Shown here piece by piece: positions 10,547 to 26,872 of a DNA stretch of 26,872 nucleotides; the stretch's first letter is position 1; every line of letters begins with the position of its first letter. The DNA lies in the NCBI GenBank assembly GCA_964500345.1, contig CAZCNK010000003.1:6568-33439 (forward strand), read 5' to 3'. The position numbers were made by a program, and so were the translations under genes. Below the pieces are notes generated by a model. It saw only the letters and a program-made list of their open reading frames with translations, ran no database searches and had not been told where the DNA came from. Source of the stretch: Candidatus Woesearchaeota archaeon. GTDB lineage: Archaea > Nanobdellota > Nanobdellia > SCGC-AAA011-G17 > UBA489.

Positions 10547-11224
10547 GTGAGAATTTTGAAAAAGAAAAAAGAGGTAAAGGGAAAGAGTGATAATAATCTA
10601 TTTTATGCTTTGGTTGTATTTGGAATTGTTTTCTTTTTTGGATTATTAAGCGGGGGCAGTTTTACTGGGGCTCAGATTGTTGAGAGAACTCCTTTGGAGA
10701 ATGCAATTGAATTTTTGAGGAGTTTTGGTTTTTTTAGTGTTGTTTTACCATTCTTGCTTGTGTTTACAATTATTTTTGGGATATTAGAGAAGACAAGGAT
10801 ATTTGGGGAGGAAGAGATAAAAGGAAAGAAACATCCCAAGAAGAGCTTGAATGCGATGGTTGCATTTAGCATTGCTTTTTTTGTTGTTGCTGCTTCGAAT
10901 ATAGTAGGTGCAATTCAGGCTTCCTTGCCTTTAATATCTTTATTCTTAGTTATCATTGTAGCATTTTTACTTTTAGTTGGAATATTTTTTAGTGATAAAG
11001 AATTTTCTTTTTATGAAAAATTTCCTGGTTTTACTAAGATTATAATAGGTGTTGTTGTTATCGCTGTGTTAGCTGTTTTTTTAAATGCTTTTGGTTTTTT
11101 AAGTCCTATAACAAGTTTTTTTGTGGGTGGTGCAAGTGGGACTATTGGAGCATCGATAATTTTTTTAATTATAATTATTGCAGCATTATGGTATATTGTT
11201 GGAGGAAAAAAGGAGAAGGAATAA
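10547..11224 (+). CDS. Multi-pass membrane protein, paralog 1 of a tandem triplet
   Basis: LPFLLVFTIIFGILEKT...LNAMVAF motif shared with the next two genes; extra N-terminal TM ending SFTGAQI; GTG start. Confidence 0.85.
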   Translation: MRILKKKKEVKGKSDNNLFYALVVFGIVFFFGLLSGGSFTGAQIVERTPLENAIEFLRSFGFFSVVLPFLLVFTIIFGILEKTRIFGEEEIKGKKHPKKSLNAMVAFSIAFFVVAASNIVGAIQASLPLISLFLVIIVAFLLLVGIFFSDKEFSFYEKFPGFTKIIIGVVVIAVLAVFLNAFGFLSPITSFFVGGASGTIGASIIFLIIIIAALWYIVGGKKEKE

Positions 11225-11773
11225 ATGGCAGTTAGTTTAACTGATTTGATAGGAAGATGGCAAGATCTTGGGATATATGATGTAGCTTTGCCTTTTTTGC
11301 TTGTTTTTGTTATTGTTTTTGGGATATTACAAAAAGTTAATTTGTTTGGAGAGAAATCCAAGAATTTGAATGCAGTGGTTGCTTTGGTTGCTGGATTAGT
11401 CTTCTTACAAAATACCTTCTTGGTTTTTACTCTGCAAAGATATTTGGCTAGAATGAGTTTTGCATTGGTTGTATTTTTGATGTTTTTGTTATTGATAGGT
11501 ATATTTGCTGGAAAATATAAAGGTTTGAAAAATGGGGCTTTAACTACTGCATTTGTTGTTTCGATAATAGTAATGGTATGGGCATTATCATCTGAATTTT
11601 TTGGAATGCCTGGAGAGGATGATTTTTTTCAGTGGTGGGATAGTATTGACCCTGTTACAAAGACAACCTTTTGGTTTGTTGTGGTAATTATACTTGTTAT
11701 TAGTTTTGCTTTGGGTGGGAGTGAGAAAGGGGGAGAAGGAGGATTTTGGAAGGGAATAAAGGGTGAAGAGTAA
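11225..11773 (+). CDS. Multi-pass membrane protein, paralog 2
   Basis: LPFLLVFVIVFGILQKV...LNAVVAL; starts immediately after the upstream stop. Confidence 0.85.
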   Translation: MAVSLTDLIGRWQDLGIYDVALPFLLVFVIVFGILQKVNLFGEKSKNLNAVVALVAGLVFLQNTFLVFTLQRYLARMSFALVVFLMFLLLIGIFAGKYKGLKNGALTTAFVVSIIVMVWALSSEFFGMPGEDDFFQWWDSIDPVTKTTFWFVVVIILVISFALGGSEKGGEGGFWKGIKGEE

Positions 11774-11782
11774 TTAATTAAT

Positions 11783-12301
11783 ATGGCAACAATTTTGGAA
11801 ACTGGATTAATTGAATTTTTAATGCCTGCTATTGTGTTTTTATTTGTTTTGGTAACTGGTTATGCGTTGTTGATGAAAGTGAAGTTCTTTGGGAGCAATA
11901 AGGGATTAAATGGACTGATTGCTTTTATAATTGCTTTGCTGTTTTTTATTGTGCCTCAGATGAGGACCGTTGTTACTTTGTTTACACCTTGGGTTAGTTT
12001 ATTGACTATTTTAGTTGTTGCGCTTTTTGTTTTTTTTATGTTTCTTGGAGTGAAAGAAGAGAAGGTAGTTAAGGTAACAATGGAGAGTGCTGTTTTTATG
12101 ACTATTGTAATAGCTGCAATTTTGATTTTGTTTTTGATTGCATTGACACAGGCATTTGGACCTTTTTTAATAACGAATCAAGAACCCGGGTTTTGGAATG
12201 CAGTGAAGAGGGTTGTTTTTAGTCCAATGGTATTAGGGGCTTTTTTTATAATCATATTAGGCTCTTATGCTGTTAAGTTTATAGCAGAGTATGAAAAATG
12301 A
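11783..12301 (+). CDS. Multi-pass membrane protein, paralog 3 (more diverged)
   Basis: FLFVLVTGYALLMKVKFFG.NKGLNGLIAF aligns with the same motif. Confidence 0.85.
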   Translation: MATILETGLIEFLMPAIVFLFVLVTGYALLMKVKFFGSNKGLNGLIAFIIALLFFIVPQMRTVVTLFTPWVSLLTILVVALFVFFMFLGVKEEKVVKVTMESAVFMTIVIAAILILFLIALTQAFGPFLITNQEPGFWNAVKRVVFSPMVLGAFFIIILGSYAVKFIAEYEK

Positions 12302-12361
12302 GAAAAGTTGCGATATAAAAAACTGGAAGAAGATAGTAAAAACTTACGAAAATGCTTAAGC

Positions 12362-13000
12362 TTACTTTTTCTTTAGTTTTTCTGTCAGTTTTGTGAGCTC
12401 TTTGACGTTTGTTGTTAATGGGGAGATTATATTTTGGAGAAGTTTCTCGAGAGCTTTGATTTCTGTACCTACGTCTGAGATTCCTTTATCATAATCTTGA
12501 ATTTTTCCAAGAATGGCTTTTTGAAGATTTTCAAATCTTGATTCTATTCTAAGAATTTCTTGTTTTATTGAGAGGGTGTCTGTTTTAATTTTTTCTTTGA
12601 AAGCGTTTAAGTCTCCAATTTCTTCTAGAGCTTTTTGCCATTTTTCTGAGATTATTGATTCTGCTATTTCTTCTATTCTTTCAGTGTCTTGAGAGAAATT
12701 AAGATTTTGGAATTGTTGTGGTTGTGGTGGTTGGAATTGAGGGTACTGGAATCTTTGTTGTGCTTTTGAAACATCCATGATTGATGGCCTTAATTCTGAT
12801 TCTGGTGGTAGTGGTTGTGGGATTTGATTTTGTGGCGGCATTCCTTCTATGCTTACTTTAGTTTCTGCTTGCGAGAGGGCATCCGAGATTTGTTGGTAGG
12901 TGTAGCCTTCATCTTGCAATCTTTGAATTATTTTTTCATTTGGAAGGCCTTGCTGGATCATAGAAATAACTTCATCTGTTGGGATTTCATCTGCTGGCAA
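12362..13000 (-). CDS. Hypothetical protein: small helical N-domain, Gln/Pro-rich linker, long coiled coil
   Basis: QQGLPNEKIIQRLQDEGYTYQQISDAL; PPQNQIPQPLPP and QPPQPQQ linker; heptad-rich C-terminal half. The track start GTG 13009 lies inside a GGTGA RBS motif, so TTG 13000 is the likelier start. Confidence 0.8.
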   Translation of the reverse strand: MPADEIPTDEVISMIQQGLPNEKIIQRLQDEGYTYQQISDALSQAETKVSIEGMPPQNQIPQPLPPESELRPSIMDVSKAQQRFQYPQFQPPQPQQFQNLNFSQDTERIEEIAESIISEKWQKALEEIGDLNAFKEKIKTDTLSIKQEILRIESRFENLQKAILGKIQDYDKGISDVGTEIKALEKLLQNIISPLTTNVKELTKLTEKLKKK

Positions 13001-13017
13001 ATTTATCACCTTTCTTT

Positions 13018-13413
13018 TTATTCACTTTTTATTTTGTTTTTATTGGGTTTTACTAGTTTCAATTTTTCATCTAGGATTTTGTTTAATTGATCTTCTGTAA
13101 CAAAATTTAGTGGACTCCAGAGGTTAATATACTTTTCTAAAACTTTGATTTGATCTGATTTTGCGAAAGACTGCATTTCTTTTATTACATTTGAAAAAGT
13201 ATCTTTCATTTGAAAAAGATCCTTTTTCATTTCTCTTAGTTCTTCATTTAAAACTTTGATTTCTCTTAGAACTTTTTTATATTCTTCAATCATGTTTTGA
13301 TTTACAACAAGAAGACGCTCTGCTAGGAGGTTGTATTTGTTTTCCAGGGTTCTAACTCTTGCATTTAAATCTGATAGTATATAAGTTAGATCTTGTTCTG
13401 TTTCTTGGGGCAT
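13018..13413 (-). CDS. Hypothetical coiled-coil protein
   Basis: 131 aa; heptads (LNARVRTLENKYNLLAERL...), C-terminal EKYINLWSPLNFVT; co-oriented with the 12362 gene and divergent from the ATPase. Confidence 0.8.
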   Translation of the reverse strand: MPQETEQDLTYILSDLNARVRTLENKYNLLAERLLVVNQNMIEEYKKVLREIKVLNEELREMKKDLFQMKDTFSNVIKEMQSFAKSDQIKVLEKYINLWSPLNFVTEDQLNKILDEKLKLVKPNKNKIKSE

Positions 13414-13514
13414 TTTCCTCTTTTTCCTTTAAATTTTAAGGGAAGATGGCTATAAAAGTTTTTGGTTTTTTATTTTTTAATATGAGAAAGTTTTTAAATT
13501 AAGAGTTGCTTTTA

Positions 13515-15782
13515 ATGAATATGAGCGGGGAAAAGATTGAGGTGTTGGTGGAGGGGAGCGAGCAGGTTTTGAGAGTAGATGCTAATTCTTGGAGTTACAG
13601 TCCTAGTATTGAGGATAGCGCTTTGGTTATGGGTTATGTGATTGATAAATTAGTTGAAATTCCCGGGGTTAGCAGGATTGTTTTTAATCAGAGAAGAAAT
13701 TTTATTTATGAGTATGATCAAGTAAAGATATTAGTTGAGATAGCGCAGATATATGGCCATTTGGTTAAGGGAAAGAAGATATTTAGCTTAATTGGATATG
13801 ATGAGGGGAGCGGAAGATTTTTTGGGGAAAAGATTGGTATTTTGCAGTATTTGATTTATAATTTGTTGAGAAATGATCCTATTGGATGCTATGTAGAGGT
13901 AAAGAGATTAGTAAGAGAAGAAAGAATAAGGTTAGAGAAGGAGGGAGATTTGAGATTAATAGATGCAAGAAAGGAGTATATTGCCTTATTGAGTTATATT
14001 TTTAATTTGTTGGATAGAGCTAGAATAATTTCTTTAGTTAAAGAAGAGTTAGATGGATATAAGGTTGGTGAGAGAGGTTTGTATAAAAATTTATTTAGGG
14101 CGGTTATAACTCCAGATTTTATTTTTACTAGAATAATGAGCAGCCCTCCTTTGGATGGGGAAGAGATAGAGGCTTATAGTTTTGGCAAGAGTGATGTTGT
14201 GATTTACAAATTACCAGGAGAGATTAAATTATTGTATCATCTAAATGTGCCAGAGTTTAAATTGGATGAGGATGAATATATGCTAGTGGAGTTGGCCAGG
14301 AATGTTTTGGCTGAGCATAAACCGAGAGAAGAGGAATTCTTGGATCCGAGCAGAATGAGAGATACAATATATAATATTGGAAGAGATCTGTTGAATGAGC
14401 TGGCTGAGAATAAAGGTATTCAATTAGCTTATAAAAGGGTTGAGGAATTAGCTGAGATTTTGGTAAGATATACAGTAGGTTTTGGTGTGATTGAGATTTT
14501 GTTGCAGGATGAGAAGGTTCAAGATTTGAATATTAATGCACCTATTGGGCAAACAAATATTTTTATTGTGCATCAAGATTATGGAGAGTGTGTTACTAAT
14601 ATTATTCCGAGTAGAGAAGATGGAGAGGGATGGGCTACTAAATTTAGGCTGTTGAGTGGGAGACCTTTGGATGAGGCTAATCCAATTTTAGATACTGAGT
14701 TGAGTGTAAGCGGCGGAAGAAGTAGAGTAGCAGTGATTATGAATCCTTTGAGCCCTAATGGATTGGCTTTTGCATTTAGAAGGCATAGGGATAAACCTTG
14801 GACTTTGCCTTTGTTTATTGAAAATAGAATGTTGACTCCTTTAGCAGCAGGATTGATAAGCTTTTTAGTTGATGGAGGGAGAAGCATTATTTTTTCTGGA
14901 ACTAGATCGAGCGGTAAGACAAGTTTGATGCAGGCTATGATGCTGGAGATAATGAGGAAGTATAGAATTTTAACTGTTGAAGACACGCTTGAAATAAGTC
15001 AGGAGTATTTTAGAAAATTAGGATATAACATATTACCAATGAAGGTTAGGAGTGCTTTGATGAGTGGGGGGACTGAACTTGCAGCTGAAGAGGGAATAAG
15101 AACTAGTTTGAGGATGGGAGATAGCAGTTTGATTGTTGGAGAGGTTAGATCAAATGAGGCGAGGGCTATGTTTGAGGCAATGAGAGTAGGAGCTTTGGCA
15201 AATGTTGTTGCCGGAACAATTCACGGAGCAAGTCCTTATGCTGTTTTTGACAGGGTTGTAAATGATTTGGGTGTTCCAAGGACTAGTTTTAAGGCTGTTG
15301 ATGTAATTGTGATTAGTAATCCTGTGAGAAGCGCAGATGGATTGAGAAGTTTTAGGAGAGTTTTACAGATTTCTGAGGTGAGGAAGCATTGGGAAGAGGA
15401 TCCTTTAAGAGAAAAGGGATTTATTGATTTGATGAATTATGATAGCAAGTTAGATTTGTTAAAAGAAACTGATGATTTGAAGAATGGAGAGAGTGATGTA
15501 TTAAAGGAGATTGCTGGCAATGTTAGGGAGTGGGCTGGAAATTGGGATGGTGTTTGGGAGAATATTTTATTAAGGGCAAGGATAAAAGAGAGCTTAGTTA
15601 ATTTTGCTAGAAAGAGCGGAAATAAATTTTTATTAGAGGCTGATTTTGTTGTTAAGAGCAATGATCTTTTCCATAGAATTAGTGAAAAGATAATGGAGGA
15701 GGTTGGGTATTTGGACAGCAAGATGATTTATAGAGATTGGGAAGATTGGTGCAAGAGAGAAATAAAGGAGAAGAAAATTTAA
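13515..15782 (+). CDS. Type II/IV secretion, VirB11/TadA/CpaF-family pilus assembly ATPase
   Basis: Walker A GTRSSGKTS, Asp box VEDTLE, Walker B IVGEVRS, His box GTIHG, AFAFRR; long N-terminal extension. Start may be 13515 or 13521 (the track's 13506 is TTG). Confidence 0.92.
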   Translation: MNMSGEKIEVLVEGSEQVLRVDANSWSYSPSIEDSALVMGYVIDKLVEIPGVSRIVFNQRRNFIYEYDQVKILVEIAQIYGHLVKGKKIFSLIGYDEGSGRFFGEKIGILQYLIYNLLRNDPIGCYVEVKRLVREERIRLEKEGDLRLIDARKEYIALLSYIFNLLDRARIISLVKEELDGYKVGERGLYKNLFRAVITPDFIFTRIMSSPPLDGEEIEAYSFGKSDVVIYKLPGEIKLLYHLNVPEFKLDEDEYMLVELARNVLAEHKPREEEFLDPSRMRDTIYNIGRDLLNELAENKGIQLAYKRVEELAEILVRYTVGFGVIEILLQDEKVQDLNINAPIGQTNIFIVHQDYGECVTNIIPSREDGEGWATKFRLLSGRPLDEANPILDTELSVSGGRSRVAVIMNPLSPNGLAFAFRRHRDKPWTLPLFIENRMLTPLAAGLISFLVDGGRSIIFSGTRSSGKTSLMQAMMLEIMRKYRILTVEDTLEISQEYFRKLGYNILPMKVRSALMSGGTELAAEEGIRTSLRMGDSSLIVGEVRSNEARAMFEAMRVGALANVVAGTIHGASPYAVFDRVVNDLGVPRTSFKAVDVIVISNPVRSADGLRSFRRVLQISEVRKHWEEDPLREKGFIDLMNYDSKLDLLKETDDLKNGESDVLKEIAGNVREWAGNWDGVWENILLRARIKESLVNFARKSGNKFLLEADFVVKSNDLFHRISEKIMEEVGYLDSKMIYRDWEDWCKREIKEKKI

Positions 15783-15883
15783 TTTTGTTGATTTTGTTTG
15801 CAATATGTTGATCTGCCAGTTTTTGATTTCATAGTTTAATGATTTGTTAAGAAGCTTATTAATGTTTCTTTCAAAGCCCGCCA

Positions 15884-16366
15884 TTACAAGTTACGCTTAA
15901 TTATTTGTCTTGCAAAATTATCAATATCAGTCTTAGCAGAACTGTCCGACAAATTATATAAAATTTCAAAATCAAAACCTAAATCAAATGCCTCAAATAC
16001 AGAAGCTAGCACACAAGCGTCTAAATCTAAACCACAAAAATACAATTTTGAAATTTTGTTCTGACTCAAAAAATCAACAAATTGTTTTGATTTGAATATT
16101 GAATATGTGCTTTTTTCAAAAATATGATTTTTCAATGCAATTTCAGAAAGCTCTGGGGCAACATCACTGTCAGGAGATTTTTTACATTTATTCCAATTCA
16201 ATTTCTTAACAAAATTCGAGCTTTCCGAATTGATGAATTTCGAGAAGATAATGAAATCATATTTTTGTGATTCAATGTGCTTCTTAATTTTTTGAGGAAG
16301 TGTTTTAATTTTCTCGGTAATAAAACAATTCTGTAAGTCTAGAATGATAAGGGCAGTTCTGCTCAT
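15884..16366 (-). CDS. Isochorismatase / cysteine hydrolase family protein
   Basis: ALIILDLQNCF (Asp), FEKSTYS (Lys), CGLDLDACV (Cys) give the catalytic triad motifs. TTTATATA at about 16396-16389 favours ATG 16366 (track start 16375). Confidence 0.9.
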   Translation of the reverse strand: MSRTALIILDLQNCFITEKIKTLPQKIKKHIESQKYDFIIFSKFINSESSNFVKKLNWNKCKKSPDSDVAPELSEIALKNHIFEKSTYSIFKSKQFVDFLSQNKISKLYFCGLDLDACVLASVFEAFDLGFDFEILYNLSDSSAKTDIDNFARQIIKRNL

Positions 16367-16545
16367 AATAGTCATTAAATTAGATTGATATATAAATCAT
16401 CTCATTGAAGGCGGGCGGGGGGAAATGTCATCTAACAACTATTAAATGAGATAAATATTCGTTTAATAGTTTAAATTAGGATAAAAAGCAAGATTTATAC
16501 TAGAACGTAAGATAAGTGACGCTAACTTAACAGCTCTTTACATAA

Positions 16546-16641: not shown

Positions 16642-18768
16642 ATGGATGGAGATGTTAGGGAGATTTTAGAGAGATACAAGGGAAAATTGGAGGATGGTAG
16701 TTTAGATTTTGAGAGTAGTTCTATTGGCTCCAGGGGATCTGGTGTGATGAGCAGGGAGTATGATATATTCAGGAGAGAAATGCTGGAGAAGAGGGTTAGT
16801 AATTATGAAAAGTGGTGCAATGTTGCTGAGAGAATTTTGAGAGTAAGGGCAAGTGAGAAGGAAAGAGAGGGTTTATTAAAATCTATTGAGACTAGCCATT
16901 TAAATATAAGCCCTGAGGGTGCTACTAGTTTTGCTGCGCTTGTTTCTGTTTTAGTAATTTTATTTGGCATAATGATTGGAGTTTTGAGTTATGCTTTTGG
17001 AGAATTGTGGTTGATTACCCCTTTATTTTTTGTGTTGGCTGGGGCTGTGATGATAAAACCTTTGACGCATATTCCAAATTATATTGCAAATAGATGGAGA
17101 TTAGAGGCAAGCAATCAAATGGTTTTATGCATTTTGTATGTTGTAATGTACATGAGGCATACTTCTAATTTAGAACATGCAATTAGATTTGCTGGAGAGC
17201 ATATAGGAGGGGCTTTAAGTTTGGATTTGAAAAAGGTTTTTTGGAACGTGGAGACTGGAAAGTTTTTTTCTATTAAAGAGAGTTTGGATAATTATTTGGA
17301 GGGTTGGCGGGGGTGTAGTATGGAATTTATAGAAAGTTTTCATTTGATTGAGGGAAGCTTGTATGAGATAAATGAGAATAAGAGAGTAGAGATGCTGGAG
17401 AAATCTTTGCAAGTAATGTTAGAAGGAACTTATGAAAAGATGTTGCATTATGCTCATAATTTACAGAGCCCAATTACTGTTTTACATATGTTAGGGATTA
17501 TATTGCCTGTTTTGGGATTAGTTATTTTTCCTTTGATTGGAAGCTTTTTATCTGGATTGATAAAATGGTATCATTTAGCAATTCTTTATGATATTATTTT
17601 GCCTGTTTTTGTTTTTTTTATGGGAAATAATTTATTGAATAAGAGACCAACTGGATATGGAGAGAGTGATGTAAGAAGAGATATGAATGTTGAGGAATAT
17701 AAAGAGAATTTTTTTGGAGCGGATCCTAAATTTGCAGGGATTTTGATTGGGGCTTTGATAGTTATGATTGGGCTAGTCCCAATGTTTGTTTATTTTTTTG
17801 CTCCTGGGTTTGATTTTGAATTCTTTGGAGGGAAGTTTTTTGATTACAAGGATGGGAATGGGCCTTATGGCATTGGGGCATTGATGTTTAGCCTGTTAAT
17901 TCCTATTGGATTAGCAGTTGGATTTTTTATTAATTATTATTTTAAGACGAGAAAGTTAATTTTTGTTAGGAAAAGAACAGATAATTTGGAGAAAGAGTTT
18001 TCTGGTGCAATATTTCAATTGGGAAATAGGATTGGAGATGGTGTTCCGGCTGAGGTTGCTTTTGGAAGTGTTACTGAAAGCATGAGAGGAACTGAGGCAG
18101 GAGATTTTTTTTTTTTTTTTAATGAGAATATTAGGAGATTAGGGATGAGCATCAAAGAGGCTATATTTAATGAAAAGGTTGGGGCTATTTTGTATTTTCC
18201 CAGCAAGTTAATTGAGAGCAGCATGAAGGTTTTGGTTGAGAGCAGCAGAAAAGGGCCTGGAACTGTGAGCAGGAGTTTAATTACTATAAGTAATTATGTT
18301 GATAGAATAAGGCAGGTAAATGAGAGACTAAAGGATTTGATGGCTGAGGTTTTGAGTAGCATGACATCGCAGATTAATTTTTTAACTCCTGTAATCGCTG
18401 GAATTGTTGTTGGTGTTGGTAGTATGGTAGTTACAATTATTAATAAATTAGGAGAACAATTTTCTCAAGTAAGTGTGCAGGGTTTTGATGCTGGAGGAAT
18501 TGCAGGAATTGCCAAGATTTTGAGGATTGAAGATGTTATTCCAGGATTTCAATTTCAAAGCATAGTTGGGATTTATTTAGTTGAGATAACAATAATATTA
18601 ACTATATTGGCAACTGGAATTGAGAGGGGTGTTGATAGAGTAAGCAATAGAAATAAGATTGCTAAGAATTTAATTAGAGCAGTAGGATTATATGTGGTAA
18701 TTGCATTTGTTGGAATAATAGTATTCAACTTATTGGCTAATGCTGTTAGTTTTTCAGTAGCAAGTTAG
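16642..18768 (+). CDS. Pilus membrane platform protein, T2SSF family with two domains (TadB+TadC-like fusion)
   Basis: 708 aa; two cytoplasmic helical domains (LEASNQMV..ILYVVMYMR..SNLE.AI.FA; LEKEFSGAIFQLGNRIGDGVPAE.AF), each followed by TM helices; next core gene after the ATPase. Confidence 0.8.
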   Translation: MDGDVREILERYKGKLEDGSLDFESSSIGSRGSGVMSREYDIFRREMLEKRVSNYEKWCNVAERILRVRASEKEREGLLKSIETSHLNISPEGATSFAALVSVLVILFGIMIGVLSYAFGELWLITPLFFVLAGAVMIKPLTHIPNYIANRWRLEASNQMVLCILYVVMYMRHTSNLEHAIRFAGEHIGGALSLDLKKVFWNVETGKFFSIKESLDNYLEGWRGCSMEFIESFHLIEGSLYEINENKRVEMLEKSLQVMLEGTYEKMLHYAHNLQSPITVLHMLGIILPVLGLVIFPLIGSFLSGLIKWYHLAILYDIILPVFVFFMGNNLLNKRPTGYGESDVRRDMNVEEYKENFFGADPKFAGILIGALIVMIGLVPMFVYFFAPGFDFEFFGGKFFDYKDGNGPYGIGALMFSLLIPIGLAVGFFINYYFKTRKLIFVRKRTDNLEKEFSGAIFQLGNRIGDGVPAEVAFGSVTESMRGTEAGDFFFFFNENIRRLGMSIKEAIFNEKVGAILYFPSKLIESSMKVLVESSRKGPGTVSRSLITISNYVDRIRQVNERLKDLMAEVLSSMTSQINFLTPVIAGIVVGVGSMVVTIINKLGEQFSQVSVQGFDAGGIAGIAKILRIEDVIPGFQFQSIVGIYLVEITIILTILATGIERGVDRVSNRNKIAKNLIRAVGLYVVIAFVGIIVFNLLANAVSFSVAS
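18105..18120 (+). repeat. T16 homopolymer inside the platform gene
   Basis: GGA GAT TTT x5 AAT gives GDFFFFFN; the frame is intact. Confidence 0.9.
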
Positions 18769-18780: not shown

Positions 18781-19485
18781 ATGGAAATTGATTTTAAGAT
18801 GTTAGTAATTTTTAAAGAAAGAGGTAAAATGAGAGAATTTCACTGGTTGCATGTTGTAAGCTTGTTTCTTTTAATAATGGTGGCTGGTTTTTTAAGCCAG
18901 GGTAACCTAACTGGTGGGGCTTTTTACAGGGATTATGGAGATGGTTATGGTGCTGGTGGATTTAATTTTTTTGGATATGGTGGTTATGGAGGATTTGGAT
19001 ATTTTAATTTTAGTGAGATGTATTATCAATATGCCTCTTTGATAGATGCCGTGATTTTTTTAGTTATCTTCTTGAGTTTGGGTAAAAGTATTTTTGGAGA
19101 GCATTTTAAGGAGAGTAAGGGAGTTTACATTGGGATTGGATTATTTTTAACAATGAGTTTGTTGTTGTGGGAGGAAAGAACTGGCTTTTCTCTTGTCGAA
19201 AGATTTGGACCTTTTGTTTTTTTCATTTTTTTGATAGTTTTAATATTTTATGTTTTTAAGTGGATAAAAGAGGCTGGAGCGGGGGCTTTGTTTGCAGCTG
19301 CTGTTGCTTATTTGATATTTTTCTTTTTTGTTTCAAGTTGGATTCAGGATTATGATTTAATGGGATGGTTGCCAGATGTAACACAAGGAATGATGTGGTG
19401 GCTTTTAACTGTAAGCTGGATTTTGGCTTGGTTTGTGGCTATTGGAAGCTTGATTTACTGGGTATGGAGTAAATTAAGCGGATAA
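18781..19485 (+). CDS. Multi-pass membrane protein with a Gly/Tyr/Phe-rich low-complexity loop
   Basis: 234 aa; YRDYGDGYGAGGFNFFGYGGYGGFGYFNF after the first TM. An internal ATG (MREFHW) is an alternative start. Confidence 0.75.
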   Translation: MEIDFKMLVIFKERGKMREFHWLHVVSLFLLIMVAGFLSQGNLTGGAFYRDYGDGYGAGGFNFFGYGGYGGFGYFNFSEMYYQYASLIDAVIFLVIFLSLGKSIFGEHFKESKGVYIGIGLFLTMSLLLWEERTGFSLVERFGPFVFFIFLIVLIFYVFKWIKEAGAGALFAAAVAYLIFFFFVSSWIQDYDLMGWLPDVTQGMMWWLLTVSWILAWFVAIGSLIYWVWSKLSG

Positions 19486-19554: not shown

Positions 19555-19770
19555 GTGAGTAGATTGGAGGTAAGAATGAAAATAATGGTGACATTTGTTG
19601 GAATATTGACAATACTTGGAGGGTTATTGCCTTTTTTGGAGAAGATGAATTGGCTGCCTGAATCTGTGAAGTGGATTCCGACAAGTGGGCCTTGGTATCA
19701 GGCAATTATCATTGGTGTTGGGGTAATTGCTGTAATCTATGGAATAATGAAGAGTAGTAGTGAGCTATGA
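19555..19770 (+). CDS. Small two-TM membrane protein
   Basis: FVGILTILGGLLPFL and WYQAIIIGVGVIAVIYG helices; start GTG 19555 or a nearby downstream ATG. Confidence 0.75.
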   Translation: MSRLEVRMKIMVTFVGILTILGGLLPFLEKMNWLPESVKWIPTSGPWYQAIIIGVGVIAVIYGIMKSSSEL

Positions 19771-19874
19771 AGAAAGGAGAATTGGGTGTAATTTTGACTA
19801 TTGTAATCGTGATTGTATTTTTGTTTATCTTATTTTATATTGCAAGAAATGTCTTGGGTGATATACTTGGATAA
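19767..19874 (+). CDS. 35-aa pilin-like peptide with a class III signal peptide (not in the ORF track)
   Basis: MKKG|ELGVILTIVIVIVFLFILFYIARNVLGDILG*; ATGA overlap with the upstream stop (19767-19770). Confidence 0.7.
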   Translation: MKKGELGVILTIVIVIVFLFILFYIARNVLGDILG

Positions 19875-20583
19875 AAAAGGAGTTAGCATGGTAGTTGTTG
19901 GGGCCATAGTTATCTTAGTTGGAGCTATTGTGGTTTTTATTTTTTTAAATAATCTTAATCTTTTTGTCAGAGAGCAAAGCGAATTAGAGAAATGCAGGTT
20001 GAGTGTTTTAGCAAAATCGAAATCTAAACTGATTACGTTTGGAGCTGAGAGTGATGTTGAGCTGAAATGCAAGACTAAGATAGAGGAGATTAATGAGAGA
20101 GATAAAAAGATGGTTATGGGAATAATGGCTGAGAACATGAGGGAATGCTGGTGGAAATTTGGAGAGGGAAAGATTGATTTTTTGAGTGAATATGACTGGT
20201 TTGGGAGTGACTATAGATGTTTTATTTGCTCGAAGAAGATATTTAGAAATGATGTTGAGAGAATTACTCATGAGGATTTTGAGAGATTTTTAAGCACTAA
20301 GAAAATGGAGGGTAGTGATAAGGCTTATAAGAATTATTTTACTTGGGGTTCTAATAGAAATATTTATTCAGAGGGAAGTTATGATAAAGAATTTTCAACT
20401 AAAAATGGAGAGAGTGTTTATGCTGTATTTGTTGGGGCTAAGAAGACAATTCATCCAGAGAATGCTTGGTGGGGGGAGTATGTTGTAGCTGCTTTTGGGG
20501 GGGTTGCTTCGCCGCATTTTTTAAAATGGGTTTACGTTGTTAATGCTGAAGACATTAAGGAGAGGTGCGATACTTTAGAATGA
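19849..20583 (+). CDS. Pilin-like / surface protein with a class III-like signal and Cys-containing ectodomain
   Basis: DKKG|VSMVVVGAIVILVGAIVVFIFL, then CRLSV, CKT, RECWWKFGEG and CFIC. Start is uncertain: ATG 19849 keeps KKG, while ATG 19888 follows AAGGAG. Confidence 0.75.
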   Translation: MSWVIYLDKKGVSMVVVGAIVILVGAIVVFIFLNNLNLFVREQSELEKCRLSVLAKSKSKLITFGAESDVELKCKTKIEEINERDKKMVMGIMAENMRECWWKFGEGKIDFLSEYDWFGSDYRCFICSKKIFRNDVERITHEDFERFLSTKKMEGSDKAYKNYFTWGSNRNIYSEGSYDKEFSTKNGESVYAVFVGAKKTIHPENAWWGEYVVAAFGGVASPHFLKWVYVVNAEDIKERCDTLE

Positions 20584-20771
20584 AATTTAGAAAGAAAATT
20601 TTAAAGAAAGATTTTGTGAAGTTTTTTAGGAAAGGGGCAATGGAGTTTGAGGAAATTGGGAGATGGGTGATTGCAGTAGTTTTATTAGTTGTTTTAGTTG
20701 GGATTATAATTGTATTAAGCAAGAAGTATCCTTTAATTTTGGAGAAATTGAAATGGGTCTTGAGGCGATGA
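20580..20771 (+). CDS. Short pilin (class III signal peptide, Glu at +5)
   Basis: RKG|AMEFEEIGRWVIAVVLLVVLVGIIIVL; 44-aa predicted mature form; ATGA overlap with the upstream gene at 20580-20583. Confidence 0.8.
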   Translation: MKFRKKILKKDFVKFFRKGAMEFEEIGRWVIAVVLLVVLVGIIIVLSKKYPLILEKLKWVLRR

Positions 20772-20923
20772 GAATAAATTTTAGAAAGAGAGGATTTATG
20801 GAGTTTGAGAAGATAGTTGGATTAGTTATTGTTTTATTAATCATCATATTTAGCATTTTTGTTATACTAAAGATAACTGTTTTAAGAGATATTTTTTTGA
20901 AATTGTTTAATATTTTAAAATAG
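20768..20923 (+). CDS. Short pilin, paralog of the previous gene
   Basis: MRINFRKRG|FMEFEKIVGLVIVLLIIIFSIFVIL; 42-aa predicted mature form; ATGA overlap at 20768-20771 (track start 20663 overlaps the previous gene). Confidence 0.8.
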   Translation: MRINFRKRGFMEFEKIVGLVIVLLIIIFSIFVILKITVLRDIFLKLFNILK

Positions 20924-20952
20924 GAAAATTTTTATAGATAAAAATTAGGGGC

Positions 20953-22362
20953 ATGATTATGAAAAAAGGGGTTGGACATATCTGGTGGGTCATAATTGTT
21001 GCTGTATTAGCTGTAATGGTTCTTCTTTTTTCTGGTGGGTCTTTATATGGTATGGGAAGAAAGGCTTTAGATGTAACTAATAAAATTTTAGGAGGGGCTG
21101 AAAAGAGTGCAGAGGAGCTAAGTAATTTGGGGTTAAGTGATTTGACAGAAAAGGATGTTAAGATGTTAGAAGAGCAAGATAGGGTTGATGTAATCTTGGC
21201 TAATGCGCTTAGAGAGGCAGATGAGTATTATTCTAATAAGGATTATGAAAAGGCTTTAGAGTTTTATAAAAAATTTTTAGAGTTGTGTGAGAGATATGAA
21301 AGAGATTGCAGGCCAGCAGATAAAAAGCATGTTGATGATAGAATTAAGGATGTTGAAAATAAATTGAGGGAGATTGAGTTAAAGAGGATTAGTGAAGAGG
21401 CTAATCCTGGTAAGAAGATTGAGGCTTTAAGTGCATTTATTGGGAAAGTTCCTGATGGAAAAATAAAAAGTCAGGCGGAATTTTTGTTGGAGGAAGAGAA
21501 GAAAATAACAGAAGAATTGGAGAGTATTGATAAAGAGATTTTAAATAATTATGAAGAAGGGAGAAGGTTATTAGCTTCTGGTTTACCTAGACAAGCCGTT
21601 GAAAAATTTAAGGAATCAAGATTTTTGGCAGAGACTGGAGATTCGGAAGGTGATCTAGTAAATAGGTATCTCTTTTTATCTAATGTTGGTCTTGTTAGGA
21701 GTTATATTATTGTTGAGGATTGTGAAAATGGAAGGGCAGCAGCTTGGGAGCTAGATTCTATTTATAGGGCAGGGAAAGTTATTGCTTTTAATGATGCAAA
21801 GGATTTGTTTCTGGGTGGTGTGTATGATGTAGCAAATTGCTTTTATCAGAGAAGTGGAAAAAGGACAGAGGCATCAAAGTCAAGAGCTGATTATTTAGCT
21901 ACTTTAGATTTTGTTTATTCTATAGATAGGTATTATACTGGATTAATCAGTAGAGATAAAATTCCTAAGTTAGTTGAGATTTATGAGAATGTTGCTTATA
22001 ACTTAGCAGATCCTGCTGATTGTGAGTCAAGGGAAAGTATTGGTGATTGCCATAAAGAAAGTAGCACAATAAGTATTATGACTTCAGAAGGACTAAAGGA
22101 ATTTAATTTTGCTGTAACTAAAGAGATTGTTAAAAAATATCCTTATCTAGGATGTTGGTGGGAATTTAGAACGACTAATTATTGTAATTATTGTGATGTG
22201 AGCATTGCAGCTAGCAAGGGATATCCAGCAATTACTTCATGTTATGATTATTACCATCTTTTTAAAGGAGGGGCTAATGAGATAGTTTGTAAGACAGATC
22301 CTTGTGGATTGGGTTGTAGGTTTGTTGATAACTGGGGGCCTAATTCATGTGAAAAAATTTAA
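20953..22362 (+). CDS. Large pilin-like protein: class III-like signal, TPR-like helices, Cys-rich C-terminus
   Basis: MKKG|VGHIWWVIIVAVLAVMVLLF; ADEYYSNKDYEKALEFYKKFLEL and YEEGRRLLASGLPRQAVEKFKES look TPR-like; terminal CWW...CNYC...CYDY...CKTDPCGLGC. Confidence 0.75.
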   Translation: MIMKKGVGHIWWVIIVAVLAVMVLLFSGGSLYGMGRKALDVTNKILGGAEKSAEELSNLGLSDLTEKDVKMLEEQDRVDVILANALREADEYYSNKDYEKALEFYKKFLELCERYERDCRPADKKHVDDRIKDVENKLREIELKRISEEANPGKKIEALSAFIGKVPDGKIKSQAEFLLEEEKKITEELESIDKEILNNYEEGRRLLASGLPRQAVEKFKESRFLAETGDSEGDLVNRYLFLSNVGLVRSYIIVEDCENGRAAAWELDSIYRAGKVIAFNDAKDLFLGGVYDVANCFYQRSGKRTEASKSRADYLATLDFVYSIDRYYTGLISRDKIPKLVEIYENVAYNLADPADCESRESIGDCHKESSTISIMTSEGLKEFNFAVTKEIVKKYPYLGCWWEFRTTNYCNYCDVSIAASKGYPAITSCYDYYHLFKGGANEIVCKTDPCGLGCRFVDNWGPNSCEKI

Positions 22363-22443
22363 TGCTTCTTTGATTTAATGAGAAGAGTATATTAAAAATA
22401 AAGGTAGAAAGGTTTATAAATTTGGAATGGTGAGAGAATTAAG

Positions 22444-22839
22444 ATGAAGATGGATTTTAAGAAAAGAGGACAAGGATTGCCTTTAACAACTATTATAATT
22501 GCGATATTAGTTGTTGTTGTTTTAGTTGTTTTAGTTGCTTTTTTCTTGGGAGGAACAACAAGCATAACAAGAGGGATAAAGAGCTTGTTTTTTGGAACTA
22601 CTGCTGGAACTGATTTAACAATTGCTGTTGAGACTTGCAGAAATAGATGTGATCAGGCTCAGACTTTGCCGAGTGATACTTTAAAGAGAAATTCTGCTTA
22701 TTGCAAGACACCTTTCCATATGGATTATGATAAGGATGGAGAAGTGGACGTTGGAGATAATGGAGAGCCAATTGAGTTTTATTGCTGGGATGATAGACTA
22801 ATGGGAAGTACCGGATGTGCTGATGTTAGTTGTAAATAA
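22444..22839 (+). CDS. Archaeal type IV pilin (major pilin candidate)
   Basis: KKRG|QGLPLTTIIIAILVVVVLVVLVAFF; own TTTATAAA box about 25 nt upstream; six Cys and a DYDKDGEVD motif in the head. Confidence 0.85.
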   Translation: MKMDFKKRGQGLPLTTIIIAILVVVVLVVLVAFFLGGTTSITRGIKSLFFGTTAGTDLTIAVETCRNRCDQAQTLPSDTLKRNSAYCKTPFHMDYDKDGEVDVGDNGEPIEFYCWDDRLMGSTGCADVSCK

Positions 22840-22907
22840 AATTTGATGAGTTTGATAGGTAGTTAGATTTATAATTTATTTTTGTTTTAAGAGCATTGGT
22901 AATTCTA

Positions 22908-23363
22908 TTAACAATCTGTGATTGCTTCCTGCAGTTTGCCCATTGCAGAGTTCAAGTCAGTAATATACTTTTTCTGGTCATTAATTGCTTGCTCTACATC
23001 AGAAACAAATTTGCCATCTTCTCTAGCAAATTCTAAATCTACTTCGAGACCCTCTAAATCTTTTTCTGCTTCTGAGATTGCATTTGCTTGTGATTGTATT
23101 TCTTTTCTTGTGGAGTCTATATTATCACAGGCATTTTCTATAGAAATGGGGAATGATTGTGCTTCTTCATCACTTGCTTTACTTGTTATTTCTTTTTCAT
23201 ATGAATCAGTTGACGGAGTTTTCATTGCAAACTTTAAAATTAGAAATCCTGCAATTATTATAACCAGCAAAATTATCCATATGAATTTCTTACTTTTTGG
23301 CTTATTTTTTGGCTTTATGGTGCTCTTTCTTTTTTTATTTTCTTTTTTTATTTTCTTTGTCAT
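22908..23363 (-). CDS. Membrane-anchored coiled-coil protein
   Basis: Lys-rich N-terminus, one TM (FIWIILLVIIIAGFLIL), acidic heptads; starts 2 nt after the 893-aa gene's stop with AGGAG upstream. Confidence 0.75.
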   Translation of the reverse strand: MTKKIKKENKKRKSTIKPKNKPKSKKFIWIILLVIIIAGFLILKFAMKTPSTDSYEKEITSKASDEEAQSFPISIENACDNIDSTRKEIQSQANAISEAEKDLEGLEVDLEFAREDGKFVSDVEQAINDQKKYITDLNSAMGKLQEAITDC

Positions 23364-23365
23364 TC

Positions 23366-26047
23366 TTATCTCCTTGATTTAACACATGCTCCTTCAGAGC
23401 AGTAACCTCCTTCGCAAAATCTTGAATAGACTCTCATTTGATTACCGATGCATACTTTTTCACTTACGAATTCGCCTTGGCTATAGCATACATCTTCAAC
23501 TGTAACAACTGATTTTGAGGTTTCATCGTAGAAGGTTACTTTTCCAAGCGTGTAAATGTCTACTCCATCAGAATCTTGACAAAATGGCTCTGTTTTTAGT
23601 GCACCTTCTATACAGGCTCCGTCTGAACACCTTGTTCCTGGTGGGCAAGAAACTTTTCTTGACATGAAAGTATTAAGCTTGCAAATGCCTTCATTGACAT
23701 TGGATTCTCCGTCACATGAGTCTGTAAATGTATTTTGTTTGCCTTCTTTATCAGTGTATTTAACTGTTCCTTTTGTTTTTCTTTCCTTTGCGTCAGAATC
23801 TGAACATGACTCTTTGGATTTAACACATGCACCATTTAGACATACTTCATCACCACTGCACTTGAGAATTTTGGTTCTGCCTTGGTTTATGGTGTTACAA
23901 ACTGATTCTTCAACGAATCTGTAGCCTATACATGTATCTTCTATTGTTTTTGAAGATCCTTTTTCATCTGTATATGCAACTGTGCTCTTGGAGTTCTTAT
24001 TTTCACCGTCTTGGTCTGTACATTTGGTTGAAGTTTGTTTGCAAGCGCCATTGCTGCAAATATAACCTGCAGGGCATCTTCTTCTGCAGTTTTCCTGATT
24101 CTCACAGGCAAATTTACCATCTTGAGTACATAAGCCTTCAAGAACACCTACTAATCCTATGCAACTATCTGTAAATGTGTTTGTTTTACCGTCTGGAGTT
24201 AGGTATGTTACTATACCTGCTTGGTTTATATTATCTCCATCTGGATCTTCACAGGTTGATTTTGGTTTACACACATTGCCTTCATCTATTTCAGAATTGC
24301 AATTATTATCTATTTTGTCGCATATTTCAATTGCAGAAGGATTTACATTTGCTAGCTTGTCATTGCAATCAAGATTATTATCTACGTAACCTTCTGGTTT
24401 TGCTGGTGCAGATTTCTGAGCTTGTGGATTACCATAACTATCTTTATCGAGATCTTCATAGAATATGGCTCCTCTTTCTTTTAATTGATATGTACACCTC
24501 GATAATTTTGCTGCTGCATCTAAATTTGAGTACTTCCCATTTATGAATTGATTTTCACCATAAGTGTAATCTGGGCAGTTCCTGTCAATGCAGCGAGGGT
24601 CATAAATATCTTTGCATTCTTTTATTATCCATGTAGCAGAATCTTTAGTTCTTGATACTGGGTTGGTTGCTAGATAAGTTTTTAGGATGGGATTTTCGAT
24701 TACTAAAATAGCACCAAGGCCCATAGCACCTGAACCTGCAGGATAACCTGTTGTTTGTGTCCATAAATAACTAACTTCGTGGTTTGGTTCTCCAGAGTCT
24801 ACTTTACCTAGTTTAAATATCCCATTAAATATATCTCCATAATACAAAGGAATCTGGATTGATTCACCTTCTTTCAAGGTTACTGTTAGACCTTCTTTAA
24901 GTGTAGGGGTTTCTTCTGGAGAGCATGCACCGTCTTTGCACCCTTTTCTACACTCAATATTTTTTAAAGCAACTATCTTTTTTCCTTGATAGTCTATGCA
25001 TATGTTTTCTGTTACGTAATTCTCATTTAGGCAAGTGTCTGTAACTGTTTTTAATGTGCTGTCAAAGATGCCTTTTGTAGTTCCTTTTACAAATCTATTA
25101 TCTCCATCTGGGTCTTCACAAATTACTTCTTGACTTGGTTTCTGCTGTTCTCCTGTGTCAATTAGTTTGTAAGCGCATTGCCTTTGTTTAGACTGAGGCC
25201 ATGTTAAAAGCTTGCCCTCAACATATTTTTTGTTATTATAACTAAAGTCTTTACATCCATCAAAGCAATTAGGGTCATCAGTATTTTTACACTCTTTTAC
25301 TTTGAAAGTCACTGTTTCTCCTTCTCTGTCTACAGGAACGATTAAAAAGGTAGCTCCTTGCAATTGCCACCAATCATTTATAACTATATGCCCTAGACTT
25401 ACGAGACCGTAAGTGATGTATTCTTCATTAGACTTTCTTAATTCATATCGAATATAGTTTCCTGGAGGTCCATAGTCAGCATCAGTAAGTTTTAGTATAA
25501 AGCCGCCTATAGGCCATAACTTAAGAGGGACTTTTGTTGATTCTCCTTTTTTTAGCTTAAATATCATTTCTTTTGCCGGTTCTGGAACTGGCTCTGATGG
25601 CGGGGCTGTTGTTGTGGATGGGGAAGTAGGTGGTTCCTTTGATTCAGGGGATGGTTCGCATTTGTTTGTGTTGAAATTGCAAATAGAATTTTCATCACAG
25701 TCTTCTTGCTCAAGACATTCTACACATTTTTTTAGAGATAGATCGCATCTTTTTTGGCAATCTTTGTCAGATGAACATTCTCCTTTTTGTATGCACCTTC
25801 CAGTGTTTATGTCGCATGTTCCACTAGAGCAATCAGAATCAGCTAAACAACCCAGTTTGCATGAACCAGACTCGCATATATATCCTGTGCCACAATCAGC
25901 ATCTTGATTGCAGCTAACTGCGAGACCAGCAAGAAAATGTAAGCCATATTTGCTCTTATAGTTTTCTATATTTGTTGATGTGCATCCAGAAAGAACAAAT
26001 AAAAATAGAACACCCAGTAAAGCAAAATAAATTACCTCTTTTTTCAT
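23366..26047 (-). CDS. Large Cys-rich repeat surface (lipo)protein
   Basis: Signal peptide ending LSGC (lipobox-like); four CxxDxDC modules; Pro/Thr/Ser linker; two ~140-aa homologous domains; a MopE-like repeat (DLDKDSYGN...DCND...P.AIEICD.IDNNC...IDEG); five C.D.D(G)...G.V...D.C...E..C...C..GAC repeats. Confidence 0.9.
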   Translation of the reverse strand: MKKEVIYFALLGVLFLFVLSGCTSTNIENYKSKYGLHFLAGLAVSCNQDADCGTGYICESGSCKLGCLADSDCSSGTCDINTGRCIQKGECSSDKDCQKRCDLSLKKCVECLEQEDCDENSICNFNTNKCEPSPESKEPPTSPSTTTAPPSEPVPEPAKEMIFKLKKGESTKVPLKLWPIGGFILKLTDADYGPPGNYIRYELRKSNEEYITYGLVSLGHIVINDWWQLQGATFLIVPVDREGETVTFKVKECKNTDDPNCFDGCKDFSYNNKKYVEGKLLTWPQSKQRQCAYKLIDTGEQQKPSQEVICEDPDGDNRFVKGTTKGIFDSTLKTVTDTCLNENYVTENICIDYQGKKIVALKNIECRKGCKDGACSPEETPTLKEGLTVTLKEGESIQIPLYYGDIFNGIFKLGKVDSGEPNHEVSYLWTQTTGYPAGSGAMGLGAILVIENPILKTYLATNPVSRTKDSATWIIKECKDIYDPRCIDRNCPDYTYGENQFINGKYSNLDAAAKLSRCTYQLKERGAIFYEDLDKDSYGNPQAQKSAPAKPEGYVDNNLDCNDKLANVNPSAIEICDKIDNNCNSEIDEGNVCKPKSTCEDPDGDNINQAGIVTYLTPDGKTNTFTDSCIGLVGVLEGLCTQDGKFACENQENCRRRCPAGYICSNGACKQTSTKCTDQDGENKNSKSTVAYTDEKGSSKTIEDTCIGYRFVEESVCNTINQGRTKILKCSGDEVCLNGACVKSKESCSDSDAKERKTKGTVKYTDKEGKQNTFTDSCDGESNVNEGICKLNTFMSRKVSCPPGTRCSDGACIEGALKTEPFCQDSDGVDIYTLGKVTFYDETSKSVVTVEDVCYSQGEFVSEKVCIGNQMRVYSRFCEGGYCSEGACVKSRR

Positions 26048-26222
26048 TGATATTTCTTTATTTTTTATATTTAAAAGATTTTCGGATTTTGTTAAGACGT
26101 CTTGTAGTTACATAATAGATGAACTGTGCGATGTATTTCATTTTATTATCAGCAAAATAGAAGTGGACTTTATGCTAAAAGAAATAGTGAGATTTATATA
26201 TTAAATAATTCTTTTGATTTTT

Positions 26223-26774
26223 ATGATTTTTATGGATAGAGGGGATGAAGAGGTTGGATTTCTAAGCGTGGCGATTAAGGTTGTTATAGGGGCAATAATT
26301 GTAATTGTGATGTGGAATGTGATAAATAATATATGGGATATTTTTATGGGCGGGGTAGATAGTGAAAGTAAAAGAACATTTAGTGATTTAACTAAAGAGA
26401 TAGGAATTTTAAATAATGGTGAAAATGGAAAGATTATTGCAAAATTGAAAGATGATTATAGCATAGTTGGTTTTGGGAATAGAGAGGGAAATTTAGTTGT
26501 CGATGGAAATTGTTATGATGCTGGATATGTAAAAGAGATTAAGGCTGAGTGTAAGAGTTGTATTTGTTTGTGTAGACTTAGCGGGGCGGAGGTTTGTAAA
26601 GAGAAAATAGAGTGTAGGAGGTATTCAGGGTTAGATTTTAAAAGCGGTGATGAAGATAGATGCGGAGGAAATTTTGTAATTTTAGGAAGTGGTTTAATGA
26701 TGTTGGAAGAACTTTTCTATGTTAATATTAAAAGAGAGCAGAATGTTGTGAGTTTTACATTGAGTGAGAGTTGA
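26223..26774 (+). CDS. N-terminally anchored Cys-rich surface protein, possible atypical pilin-like
   Basis: DRG.DEEVG, then TM (FLSVAIKVVIGAIIVIVMW); ECKSCICLC and VCKEKIEC motifs; AGATTTATA 24 nt before ATG 26223. Confidence 0.7.
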   Translation: MIFMDRGDEEVGFLSVAIKVVIGAIIVIVMWNVINNIWDIFMGGVDSESKRTFSDLTKEIGILNNGENGKIIAKLKDDYSIVGFGNREGNLVVDGNCYDAGYVKEIKAECKSCICLCRLSGAEVCKEKIECRRYSGLDFKSGDEDRCGGNFVILGSGLMMLEELFYVNIKREQNVVSFTLSES

Positions 26775-26823
26775 GAAGGGAGTTGAGAATGTTTAGTTTT
26801 TGGTTTTGAAAATGGGGTGAAAG

Positions 26824-26872
26824 ATGGAGAAACAGGATCAATTTATTTTTGTTGGATATCTTTTATTGAGTA
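26824..26872 (+). CDS. 5' fragment of a gene running off the window (MEKQDQFIFVGYLLLS...)
   Basis: ATG preceded by a GGGGTGA RBS-like motif at 26814-26820; the frame is open to the window end. Confidence 0.5.
   Translation, partial: MEKQDQFIFVGYLLLS

Follow-up and report, generated by a model that had tools for sequence, protein, structure and literature searches.

A phylum-typical, probable type IV filament gene cluster with coiled-coil and membrane accessory genes in a groundwater Woesearchaeota archaeon

Gene content of the cluster

We analyzed the last 26.9 kb of contig C3 (26,872 nucleotides, the contig ending at position 26872), hereafter called the window, from the genome of a Candidatus Woesearchaeota archaeon that comprises 1.1 Mb in 116 contigs and is 86.5% complete. 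Positions 10547–26872 of the window hold a probable type IV filament (T4F) gene cluster of this groundwater DPANN archaeon, typical of its phylum. The cluster is a lineage-typical variant, loci of its kind having been published in 2024, and not a new kind of system. The sequence was matched in four groundwater metagenome DNA runs, and homologs of its genes are labelled Candidatus Woesearchaeota, Nanoarchaeota or Nanoarchaeia. An earlier note on this DNA had listed an ATPase, a double-domain platform, class III proteins of 35–469 amino acids (aa), membrane and coiled-coil proteins and an adhesin-like gene, and all of these are present. The genes that make up the body of the cluster are as follows.

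10547..11224, plus strand: m1, first of three polytopic paralogs, 6 predicted transmembrane helices, no named family
11225..11773, plus strand: m2, second paralog, 5 transmembrane helices; its ESM Atlas neighbors are unnamed archaeal clusters
11783..12301, plus strand: m3, third paralog, 5 transmembrane helices, recognized by hidden Markov model (HMM) cross-matches
12362..13009, minus strand: cc1, cytoplasmic; a small helical domain at the N-terminus is joined by a P/Q-rich linker to a coiled coil at the C-terminus
13018..13413, minus strand: cc2, 131-aa cytoplasmic coiled-coil protein
13506..15782, plus strand: secretion/pilus ATPase of the T2SSE/VirB11 family, 758 aa, extended at both termini by conserved regions (from Pfam, PDB matches and motifs)
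16642..18768, plus strand: fused double-domain platform protein of FlaJ/TadC/PilC fold, 708 aa (predicted fold)
19767..19874, plus strand: 35-aa class III-like micro-gene, MKKG then a hydrophobic helix, in ATGA overlap with the preceding gene
19849..20583, plus strand: p256-family pilin-like protein, class III-like N-terminus and globular part, conserved minor-pilin candidate
20580..20771, plus strand: headless mini-pilin 1, RKG then A-M-E-F-E, Glu +5, mature length ~44 aa, candidate major subunit
20768..20923, plus strand: headless mini-pilin 2, KRG then F-M-E-F-E, Glu +5, mature length ~42 aa
20953..22362, plus strand: p469, class III-like N-terminus, helical/TPR-like region and Cys-rich C-terminal domain, occupying a hypervariable slot
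22444..22839, plus strand: p131-family pilin-like protein, KKG/KRG-Q N-terminus, long helix and small head

The motor ATPase and the platform

The ATPase matches Pfam T2SSE at 1e-13 (51 bits, cut-off 24.9), and its PDB sequence matches are led by afGspE, the Archaeoglobus GspE (2OAP, 95 bits), followed by CpaF (82 bits) and FlaI (64 bits). Aligned to afGspE and CpaF, it has the Walker A motif, Asp box, Walker B Glu and His box all intact. Its sequence thus identifies it as a putative VirB11/T2SSE assembly ATPase with the four motifs, which is the motor component expected of a member of the T4F superfamily. Among NCBIfam models it reached 127 bits with FlaI (cut-off 550) and 121 bits with TadA (TIGR03819; cut-off 373). 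An alignment of 23 orthologs has a mean column identity of 70%, and its invariant positions extend into the N-terminal ~260 and C-terminal ~100 residues, regions that have no counterpart in FlaI. An ESM Atlas search with the N-terminal 260 residues returned no usable match. A complex prediction of ATPase residues 1–300 with cc1 and cc2 scored 0.00, which in a run made without controls counts neither way.

The platform protein found no match in Pfam, NCBIfam, a genome-wide T2SSF search or a PDB-sequence profile search, and hhalign comparison of its profile with the T2SSF proteins of the same genome gave probabilities of at most 7%. Its AlphaFold2 (AF2) model, with a predicted local distance difference test (pLDDT) score of 78 and a predicted template modeling (pTM) score of 0.73, matches FlaJ of M. 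voltae and M. jannaschii (E-values of 6e-9 and 7e-9) with TM-scores of 0.54–0.57 by query and 0.65–0.69 by hit, and it also matches MJ1286. Both cytoplasmic helical bundles match solved domains of EpsF, OutF and PilC (TM-scores by target of 0.66–0.77). Because both bundles resemble these domains and the whole resembles FlaJ, we assign the protein to the fused two-domain type; its place in the GspF/PilC/TadC/FlaJ family, from which T4F platforms are drawn, comes from the predicted fold only. Homologs of the platform number more than 3000, the best 120 of which are 52–67% identical.

The class III-like gene array

We screened all six frames of the genome for N-termini that have [KR]G no more than ~20 residues from a start and, behind it, a hydrophobic stretch free of charges. 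This crude screen returned 46 cases across the 1.1 Mb, of which 5 lie within the 3.1 kb of 19767–22839, and a slightly widened version adds a sixth gene there, 20580–20771. Six class III-like genes encoding 35–469 aa therefore lie in 3.1 kb, where ~0.13 would be expected. ATGA junctions occur at 19767, 20580 and 20768. At the level of the motif, these genes supply the putative subunits with class III signals that a T4F requires. The earlier count of at least six class III genes stands for these six, while the gene at 26214–26774 is atypical and a doubtful seventh.

The two mini-pilins of the window carry Glu at +5 followed by E or K at +6, and some orthologs read W-E-Y, the Flp pattern being G-x-x-x-x-E-Y. 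The alignment of the p131 family shows an N-terminus conserved as KKG/KRG-Q-x-L-x-x-N-T, six Cys that never vary and a D-x-D-x-DG loop. The AF2 model of p131 (pLDDT 83) consists of a long N-terminal helix and a small helical head, and its matches among AFDB clusters are its own "EF-hand" family together with weak pilin N-terminal matches. The six invariant Cys and the EF-hand-like loop of the head suggest a disulfide-bonded, calcium-binding extracellular domain. For p469, only weak TPR matches were obtained.

In order to see how the array is laid out elsewhere, we counted class III-like open reading frames (ORFs) in 30 loci with 8 kb on both sides of the platform. The median is 5 downstream on the platform strand and 1 upstream; antisense class III-like ORFs are absent from 28 of the 30 loci, with one each in the other two. 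Array proteins were grouped by BLAST clustering after removal of the signal and helix, which gave a p256 family in 46 loci, a p131 family in 37 and a ~270-aa family in 22, the last absent from the window. The recurring plan starts with a mini gene of ~40 aa, continues with the p256 family and with one or two headless Glu+5 mini-pilins of ~50 aa, and ends with a hypervariable slot of 420–540 aa and the p131 family.

Three families of mini genes can be told apart. The first (~35–43 aa) stands at the array start, and class III-like ORFs of at most 46 aa open the array in 20 of 48 loci. The second (~50–55 aa) combines an acidic residue at +1 with W +4 and Glu +5 and often ends in R-F-G, and the third (~57–66 aa) has a p131-like N-terminus. 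Glu +5 is found in mini-pilins of 17 of the 48 loci compared with 10 of 234 larger pilin-like proteins. The 420–540-aa gene that separates p256 from p131 hardly ever clusters with another: the globular part of p469 has a homolog in one other locus only, and a gene of similar size occupies the same position in many loci.

Accessory membrane and coiled-coil proteins

The three membrane proteins m1–m3 are paralogous, with HMM cross-matches ranging from 1e-9 down to 4e-38. Their family gave no significant NCBIfam match and no consistent Pfam match over 32 members. Both cc1 and cc2 are predicted to have neither a transmembrane nor a signal segment, and the pair is transcribed divergently from the ATPase gene. 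The cc2 family alignment shows a conserved C-terminal motif.

Conservation across relatives

A one-genome-per-species pattern scan yielded 511 platform-encoding loci, 80 of which were kept for tblastn. The ATPase is matched in 76 of these 80 loci, cc1 and cc2 in 61 each, m1 and m2 in 50 each, m3 in 52, p256 in 40 and p131 in 36. Gene order is also retained. In 27 of the 29 Woesearchaeota loci with full flanks the order is M50-like, TraB, PRC barrel, m1, m2, m3, cc1, cc2, ATPase, platform, and in 19 of the 29 the ATPase and platform genes directly abut (2.3-kb spacing). The co-conservation on which the earlier note had staked its proposal is thus borne out, with the triplet and the coiled-coil pair kept beside the motor. 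Phylum-wide, the platform was found in 398 of 401 sampled genomes (117 families) and the m family in 118 of 121, nearly always in 3 copies.

We further compared eleven stretches from ten distant genomes of the class. Here the M50, TraB and PRC neighbors are gone, and the ATPase and platform adjoin in 7 of the 10. Both coiled-coil genes lie beside the ATPase in four genomes (G010, G089, G092 and G248), cc2 alone does so in G357, and the triplet or part of it stays with the motor in three (G010, G089 and G092). A single-contig genome of the class with only 490,885 bp (G059) retains the ATPase (713 bits) together with a diverged platform and two m genes, all dispersed over four sites. In the single-contig, 605,887-bp genome of G248 the ATPase and platform are kept with the coiled-coil pair adjacent, and the triplet lies 150 kb away.

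These comparisons bear on whether the triplet and the coiled-coil pair work with the motor at all. They might serve another process, such as envelope biogenesis or division, their adjacency to the motor being a frozen gene order; at the order level the conserved block does hold the unrelated M50-like, TraB-family and PRC-barrel genes, the triplet sits elsewhere in the genome in G018, G040 and G248, and in G062 an m gene is present where no motor ortholog was detected. Yet the distant families that have lost M50, TraB and PRC still keep cc1 and cc2, or in G357 cc2 only, by the ATPase, and three of them keep at least part of the triplet there. Moreover, G331 (92% complete) lacks both the ATPase ortholog and the m family, and Hamm et al. 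2024 (PMC11291902) independently tie coiled-coil proteins to CpaF/TadC in several DPANN phyla. We consider such a separate role somewhat unlikely.

Strain-specific insertions and neighboring genes

The remaining features of the window lie within, around or upstream of the cluster.

8591–10420: M50-like membrane protein, TraB/PrgY-family protein and PRC-barrel protein (from domains and synteny with the pilus module)
15884..16375, minus strand: isochorismatase-family gene between ATPase and platform (Pfam 6e-20)
18781..19485, plus strand: m4, 5-transmembrane protein with a Gly/Tyr/Phe-rich loop, kept in a subset of loci only
19555..19770, plus strand: 71-aa protein with two transmembrane segments (transmembrane prediction)
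22908..23363, minus strand: cc3, N-terminal transmembrane helix (transmembrane prediction) and coiled coil, in an antisense island
23366..26047, minus strand: 893-aa Cys-rich repeat protein with a lipobox-like signal, adhesin-like (Pfam MopE-type motif 3.5e-9)
26214..26774, plus strand: p186, single transmembrane segment, Cys-containing, atypical class III-like start; the doubtful seventh gene, at which the plus-strand array resumes

The antisense pair of cc3 and the adhesin gene interrupts the pilin-like array. In the 80 loci searched with tblastn, the isochorismatase gene, cc3 and the 35-aa gene found no match, and the adhesin, p469 and p186 found one each, that of the adhesin being partial. 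Matches to m4 occur in 15 of the 80 loci with partial coverage, and m4 is not significantly related to m1–m3 by HMM comparison; the 71-aa protein is matched in 6 of the 80.

The contig has a G-over-C bias on the plus strand, with a GC skew of 0.41 overall, that is shared by old minus-strand genes (TctA 0.55, M50-like 0.46). The skew is −0.06 for the isochorismatase gene, −0.12 for cc3 and −0.08 for the adhesin gene; these deviating values fit a recent arrival, to which amino-acid composition could contribute. Because the isochorismatase gene is absent from the 80 related loci and departs from the local skew, we read it as probably a recent insertion into a tight ATPase–platform pair. From these comparisons of sequence, the isochorismatase gene, the adhesin, cc3 and the p469 sequence are strain-specific and lie outside the conserved machine. 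The earlier note had listed the adhesin-like gene, as an inserted one, along with the system; we rejected the adhesin island as a component of the conserved machine, since it and its coiled-coil partner are strain-specific, with one partial match in 80 loci, and deviate in skew. As a separate observation, an absolute skew above 0.2 is found in 26 of the 78 contigs longer than 5 kb, and the strand bias resembles an effect of the replication strand, stronger than is usual in archaea.

Housekeeping genes lie 5' of the pilus cluster (TctA, a class I tRNA synthetase, an arginase-family enzyme, LigT and Hef). The M50-like, TraB/PrgY and PRC-barrel genes are syntenic with the pilus module order-wide, a synteny that is absent in distant families. 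PRC-barrel proteins are linked to archaeal cell division, and the one near the pilus module has a median identity of 63%.

Other type IV filament genes in the genome

The earlier note had seen no archaellin, ArlF/G/H, prepilin peptidase or retraction ATPase. This holds within the window, but a peptidase does exist in the genome, where the search for PibD/EppA that the note had called for located a single Peptidase_A24/FlaK-like gene on contig C36. Archaellin (PF01917) was not found in the 86.5%-complete genome. ArlH, ArlF, ArlG and ArlCDE/X-like domains are absent among the window proteins, the rest of the genome being unsearched for ArlH/F/G.

Two further and more canonical T4F loci, with split platforms and their own pilin-like genes, are located on contigs C41 and C1. 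The ATPase at C41:311-3514 has 1067 aa, contains an intein (NCBIfam intein_Nterm, 9e-19) and reaches 374 bits with the FlaI model; two platform genes and pilin-like genes come after it. At C1:5689-7205 the ATPase is encoded by two adjacent ORFs of 332 and 170 aa with a 2-nt gap after the stop codon, which could reflect a broken gene, a sequencing error or a true split, and it is surrounded by two platform genes and six pilin-like genes. The motor of the window is the most divergent of the three in the genome and the one that is universal in the phylum. Class III-like clusters also occur away from any ATPase gene, at C7:11776-23030 (six genes) and C32:1533-4276 (four genes).

Comparison with known systems

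Novelty had been assumed for this locus, but for cluster-2 DPANN an earlier publication already describes the association of coiled-coil proteins with the ATPase and TadC. Hamm et al. 2024 (Nat Commun 15:6449; PMC11291902) found two type IV pilus-like loci, conserved across Nanohaloarchaeota, Woesearchaeota, Pacearchaeota, Nanoarchaeota, Aenigmarchaeota and Undinarchaeota, in which coiled-coil proteins (CCP) accompany CpaF and TadC. They proposed a role in host interaction, and some of the locus proteins were seen by proteomics in Ca. Nanohaloarchaeum antarcticus. The window and the loci of its relatives resemble these in that coiled-coil genes adjoin the pilus ATPase and platform, a comparison of layout and not of CCP sequences. 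Judged by gene content, this arrangement appears conserved within the phylum and class. Viral attachment proteins served Hamm et al. as the model for the CCPs; cc1 and cc2, by contrast, have no predicted segment for export or membrane insertion. The main text of Hamm et al. 2024 does not mention Glu+5 mini-pilins, and the triplet, the ordered array and the hypervariable slot appear neither in that main text nor in the one of Sivabalasarma et al. 2026 (PLoS Genet; PMC13705601). The latter study seldom recovers the T4F loci of DPANN as ordered systems; it reports that the ATPase and platform are adjacent and that system-1 (Epd-like) pilins occur in 1990 DPANN genomes.

The likeness to the Epd pilus of Methanococcus maripaludis (T4F "system 1") and to bacterial Tad/Flp pili lies in a short headless major pilin, here a candidate, alongside several minor pilin-like genes, and further in a single ATPase that has no dedicated counterpart for retraction and in a peptidase gene located outside the locus. 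In contrast, system 1 and Tad have two platform genes (TadB and TadC in Tad) where the window has one fused FlaJ-like gene, and the coiled-coil pair and membrane triplet are extra to the window. TadZ and a secretin were not found, CpaF ranks second among the PDB matches of the ATPase, and the locus has neither a TadA/CpaF-type ATPase nor separate TadB and TadC. The term "Tad-like" used in the earlier note accordingly suits the headless Glu+5 mini-pilins only; it fits neither the ATPase, which lies far below the TadA cut-off, nor the fused platform.

Euryarchaeal and halobacterial type IV pili (T4P; Makarova et al. 2016, clade 2, subclades 4C/4F) share with the window an ATPase and TadC core and minor pilins. 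Subclade 4F has an intracellular coiled-coil accessory, arCOG07564, which we liken to cc1/cc2 by description, and the membrane triplet has no counterpart in that T4P description. The census of Makarova et al. 2016 predates the Woesearchaeota genomes, and these lineages fall outside its coverage.

A proposed filament machine and its alternatives

Taken together, we consider it very probable that the core of the cluster is a T4F assembly machine. In such a machine the hexameric VirB11/T2SSE-family ATPase would dock on the fused two-domain FlaJ/TadC-like platform, and ATP use would lift processed class III subunits from the membrane and stack them into a thin filament. Signal peptides would be cut by the single FlaK/PibD-like peptidase encoded on the other contig. 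Most likely the bulk of the filament would consist of the two headless Glu+5 mini-pilins of ~42–44 residues, Flp/Epd-like, with the p256 and p131 families and other pilin-like proteins as minor, priming or tip subunits. The protein of the hypervariable 420–540-aa slot, p469 here, may be the exposed part that meets a partner cell or surface, and cc1/cc2 and m1–m3 may be lineage-specific motor accessories, for which scaffold, stator or regulator are candidate roles. We believe on balance that the machine assembles a thin filament of Epd/Tad-like type, in which headless mini-pilins are joined by conserved minor subunits and by an exposed protein that evolves fast, and that this filament serves contact with partner cells or surfaces.

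Several observations weigh against a contact filament of this kind. The array proteins match no pilin Pfam model, PF04021 included, so that their identity as pilins rests on the N-terminal motif, clustering and context; the head of the p131 model has no match to a solved PDB structure, and 5 of the 30 loci counted have no downstream class III-like ORF. The triplet is far from the motor in some families (G018, G040, G248), and the association of the accessories with the motor, membrane and cytoplasmic subcomplexes included, is drawn from synteny and co-occurrence only. The sequence was found in DNA runs only and in no RNA runs. Finally, identity reaches 56–64% among the 23 ATPase orthologs and 52–67% among the best 120 platform homologs, and presence is near-universal; such a pattern is not what one expects of an adhesion pilus and hints at a more central role, for example in secretion or uptake.

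The last point leads to the possibility that the locus builds no long adhesive pilus but a short pseudopilus or piston that serves either the secretion or surface display of class III proteins (bindosome/T2SS-like, after the type II secretion system) or the uptake of DNA or other host material. Such a role would explain why the locus is retained in nearly every genome of a phylum poor in building-block synthesis. It would also suit the near-universal and very highly conserved motor, which is kept even in a 0.49-Mb genome, as well as the many minor pilin-like genes, the very short headless subunits and the lack of a second (retraction) ATPase at the locus, and the two more canonical T4F loci of the genome could then supply ordinary pili. 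Against this, profile searches recognized no ComEC-like channel or cargo gene in the window, headless Flp/Epd pilins are generally known to build long pili in Tad/Epd systems (see also Sivabalasarma et al. 2026), and a hypervariable exposed protein suits contact and recognition better than bulk transport. We judge a pseudopilus or uptake device to be unlikely.

A bolder reading goes beyond the thin contact filament and would make the motor, coiled-coil pair and triplet one phylum-wide, near-essential contact organelle, in which a short, retractile Flp-like filament has a hypervariable tip that sets partner specificity and m1–m3 form a membrane ring or conduit for host exchange; we regard this as speculative and quite improbable.

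An archaellum-like rotary motility organelle, as automatic flaI/flaJ annotation implies, is rejected as highly improbable: the fused FlaJ architecture and the ATPase superfamily are those of the archaellum motor core (ArlI/FlaI and ArlJ/FlaJ), FlaJ is the best platform fold match, FlaI is the best NCBIfam profile of the ATPase and published surveys of Woesearchaeota list generic flaI, flaJ and flaK, but the ATPase lies far below the FlaI equivalog cut-off (127 versus 550 bits) and is extended at both its N- and C-terminus, the subunits either lack a head or are not archaellins, and the locus has neither archaellin (ArlB) nor an ArlI equivalog with its ArlH/F/G partners.

Significance for the biology of Woesearchaeota

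Among archaea that have not been cultivated, Woesearchaeota and their relatives rank with the most abundant. The locus described here is kept in almost every sampled genome of the phylum and is better conserved than is usual for pilus genes, while its platform, triplet and pilins escape routine annotation. Since loci with coiled-coil proteins, ATPase and TadC had been published for DPANN before, what is new here is a sharper parts list and not a new system. The locus is the most obvious genetic handle on the cell-contact biology of Woesearchaeota, and its hypervariable slot is a testable candidate for partner specificity.

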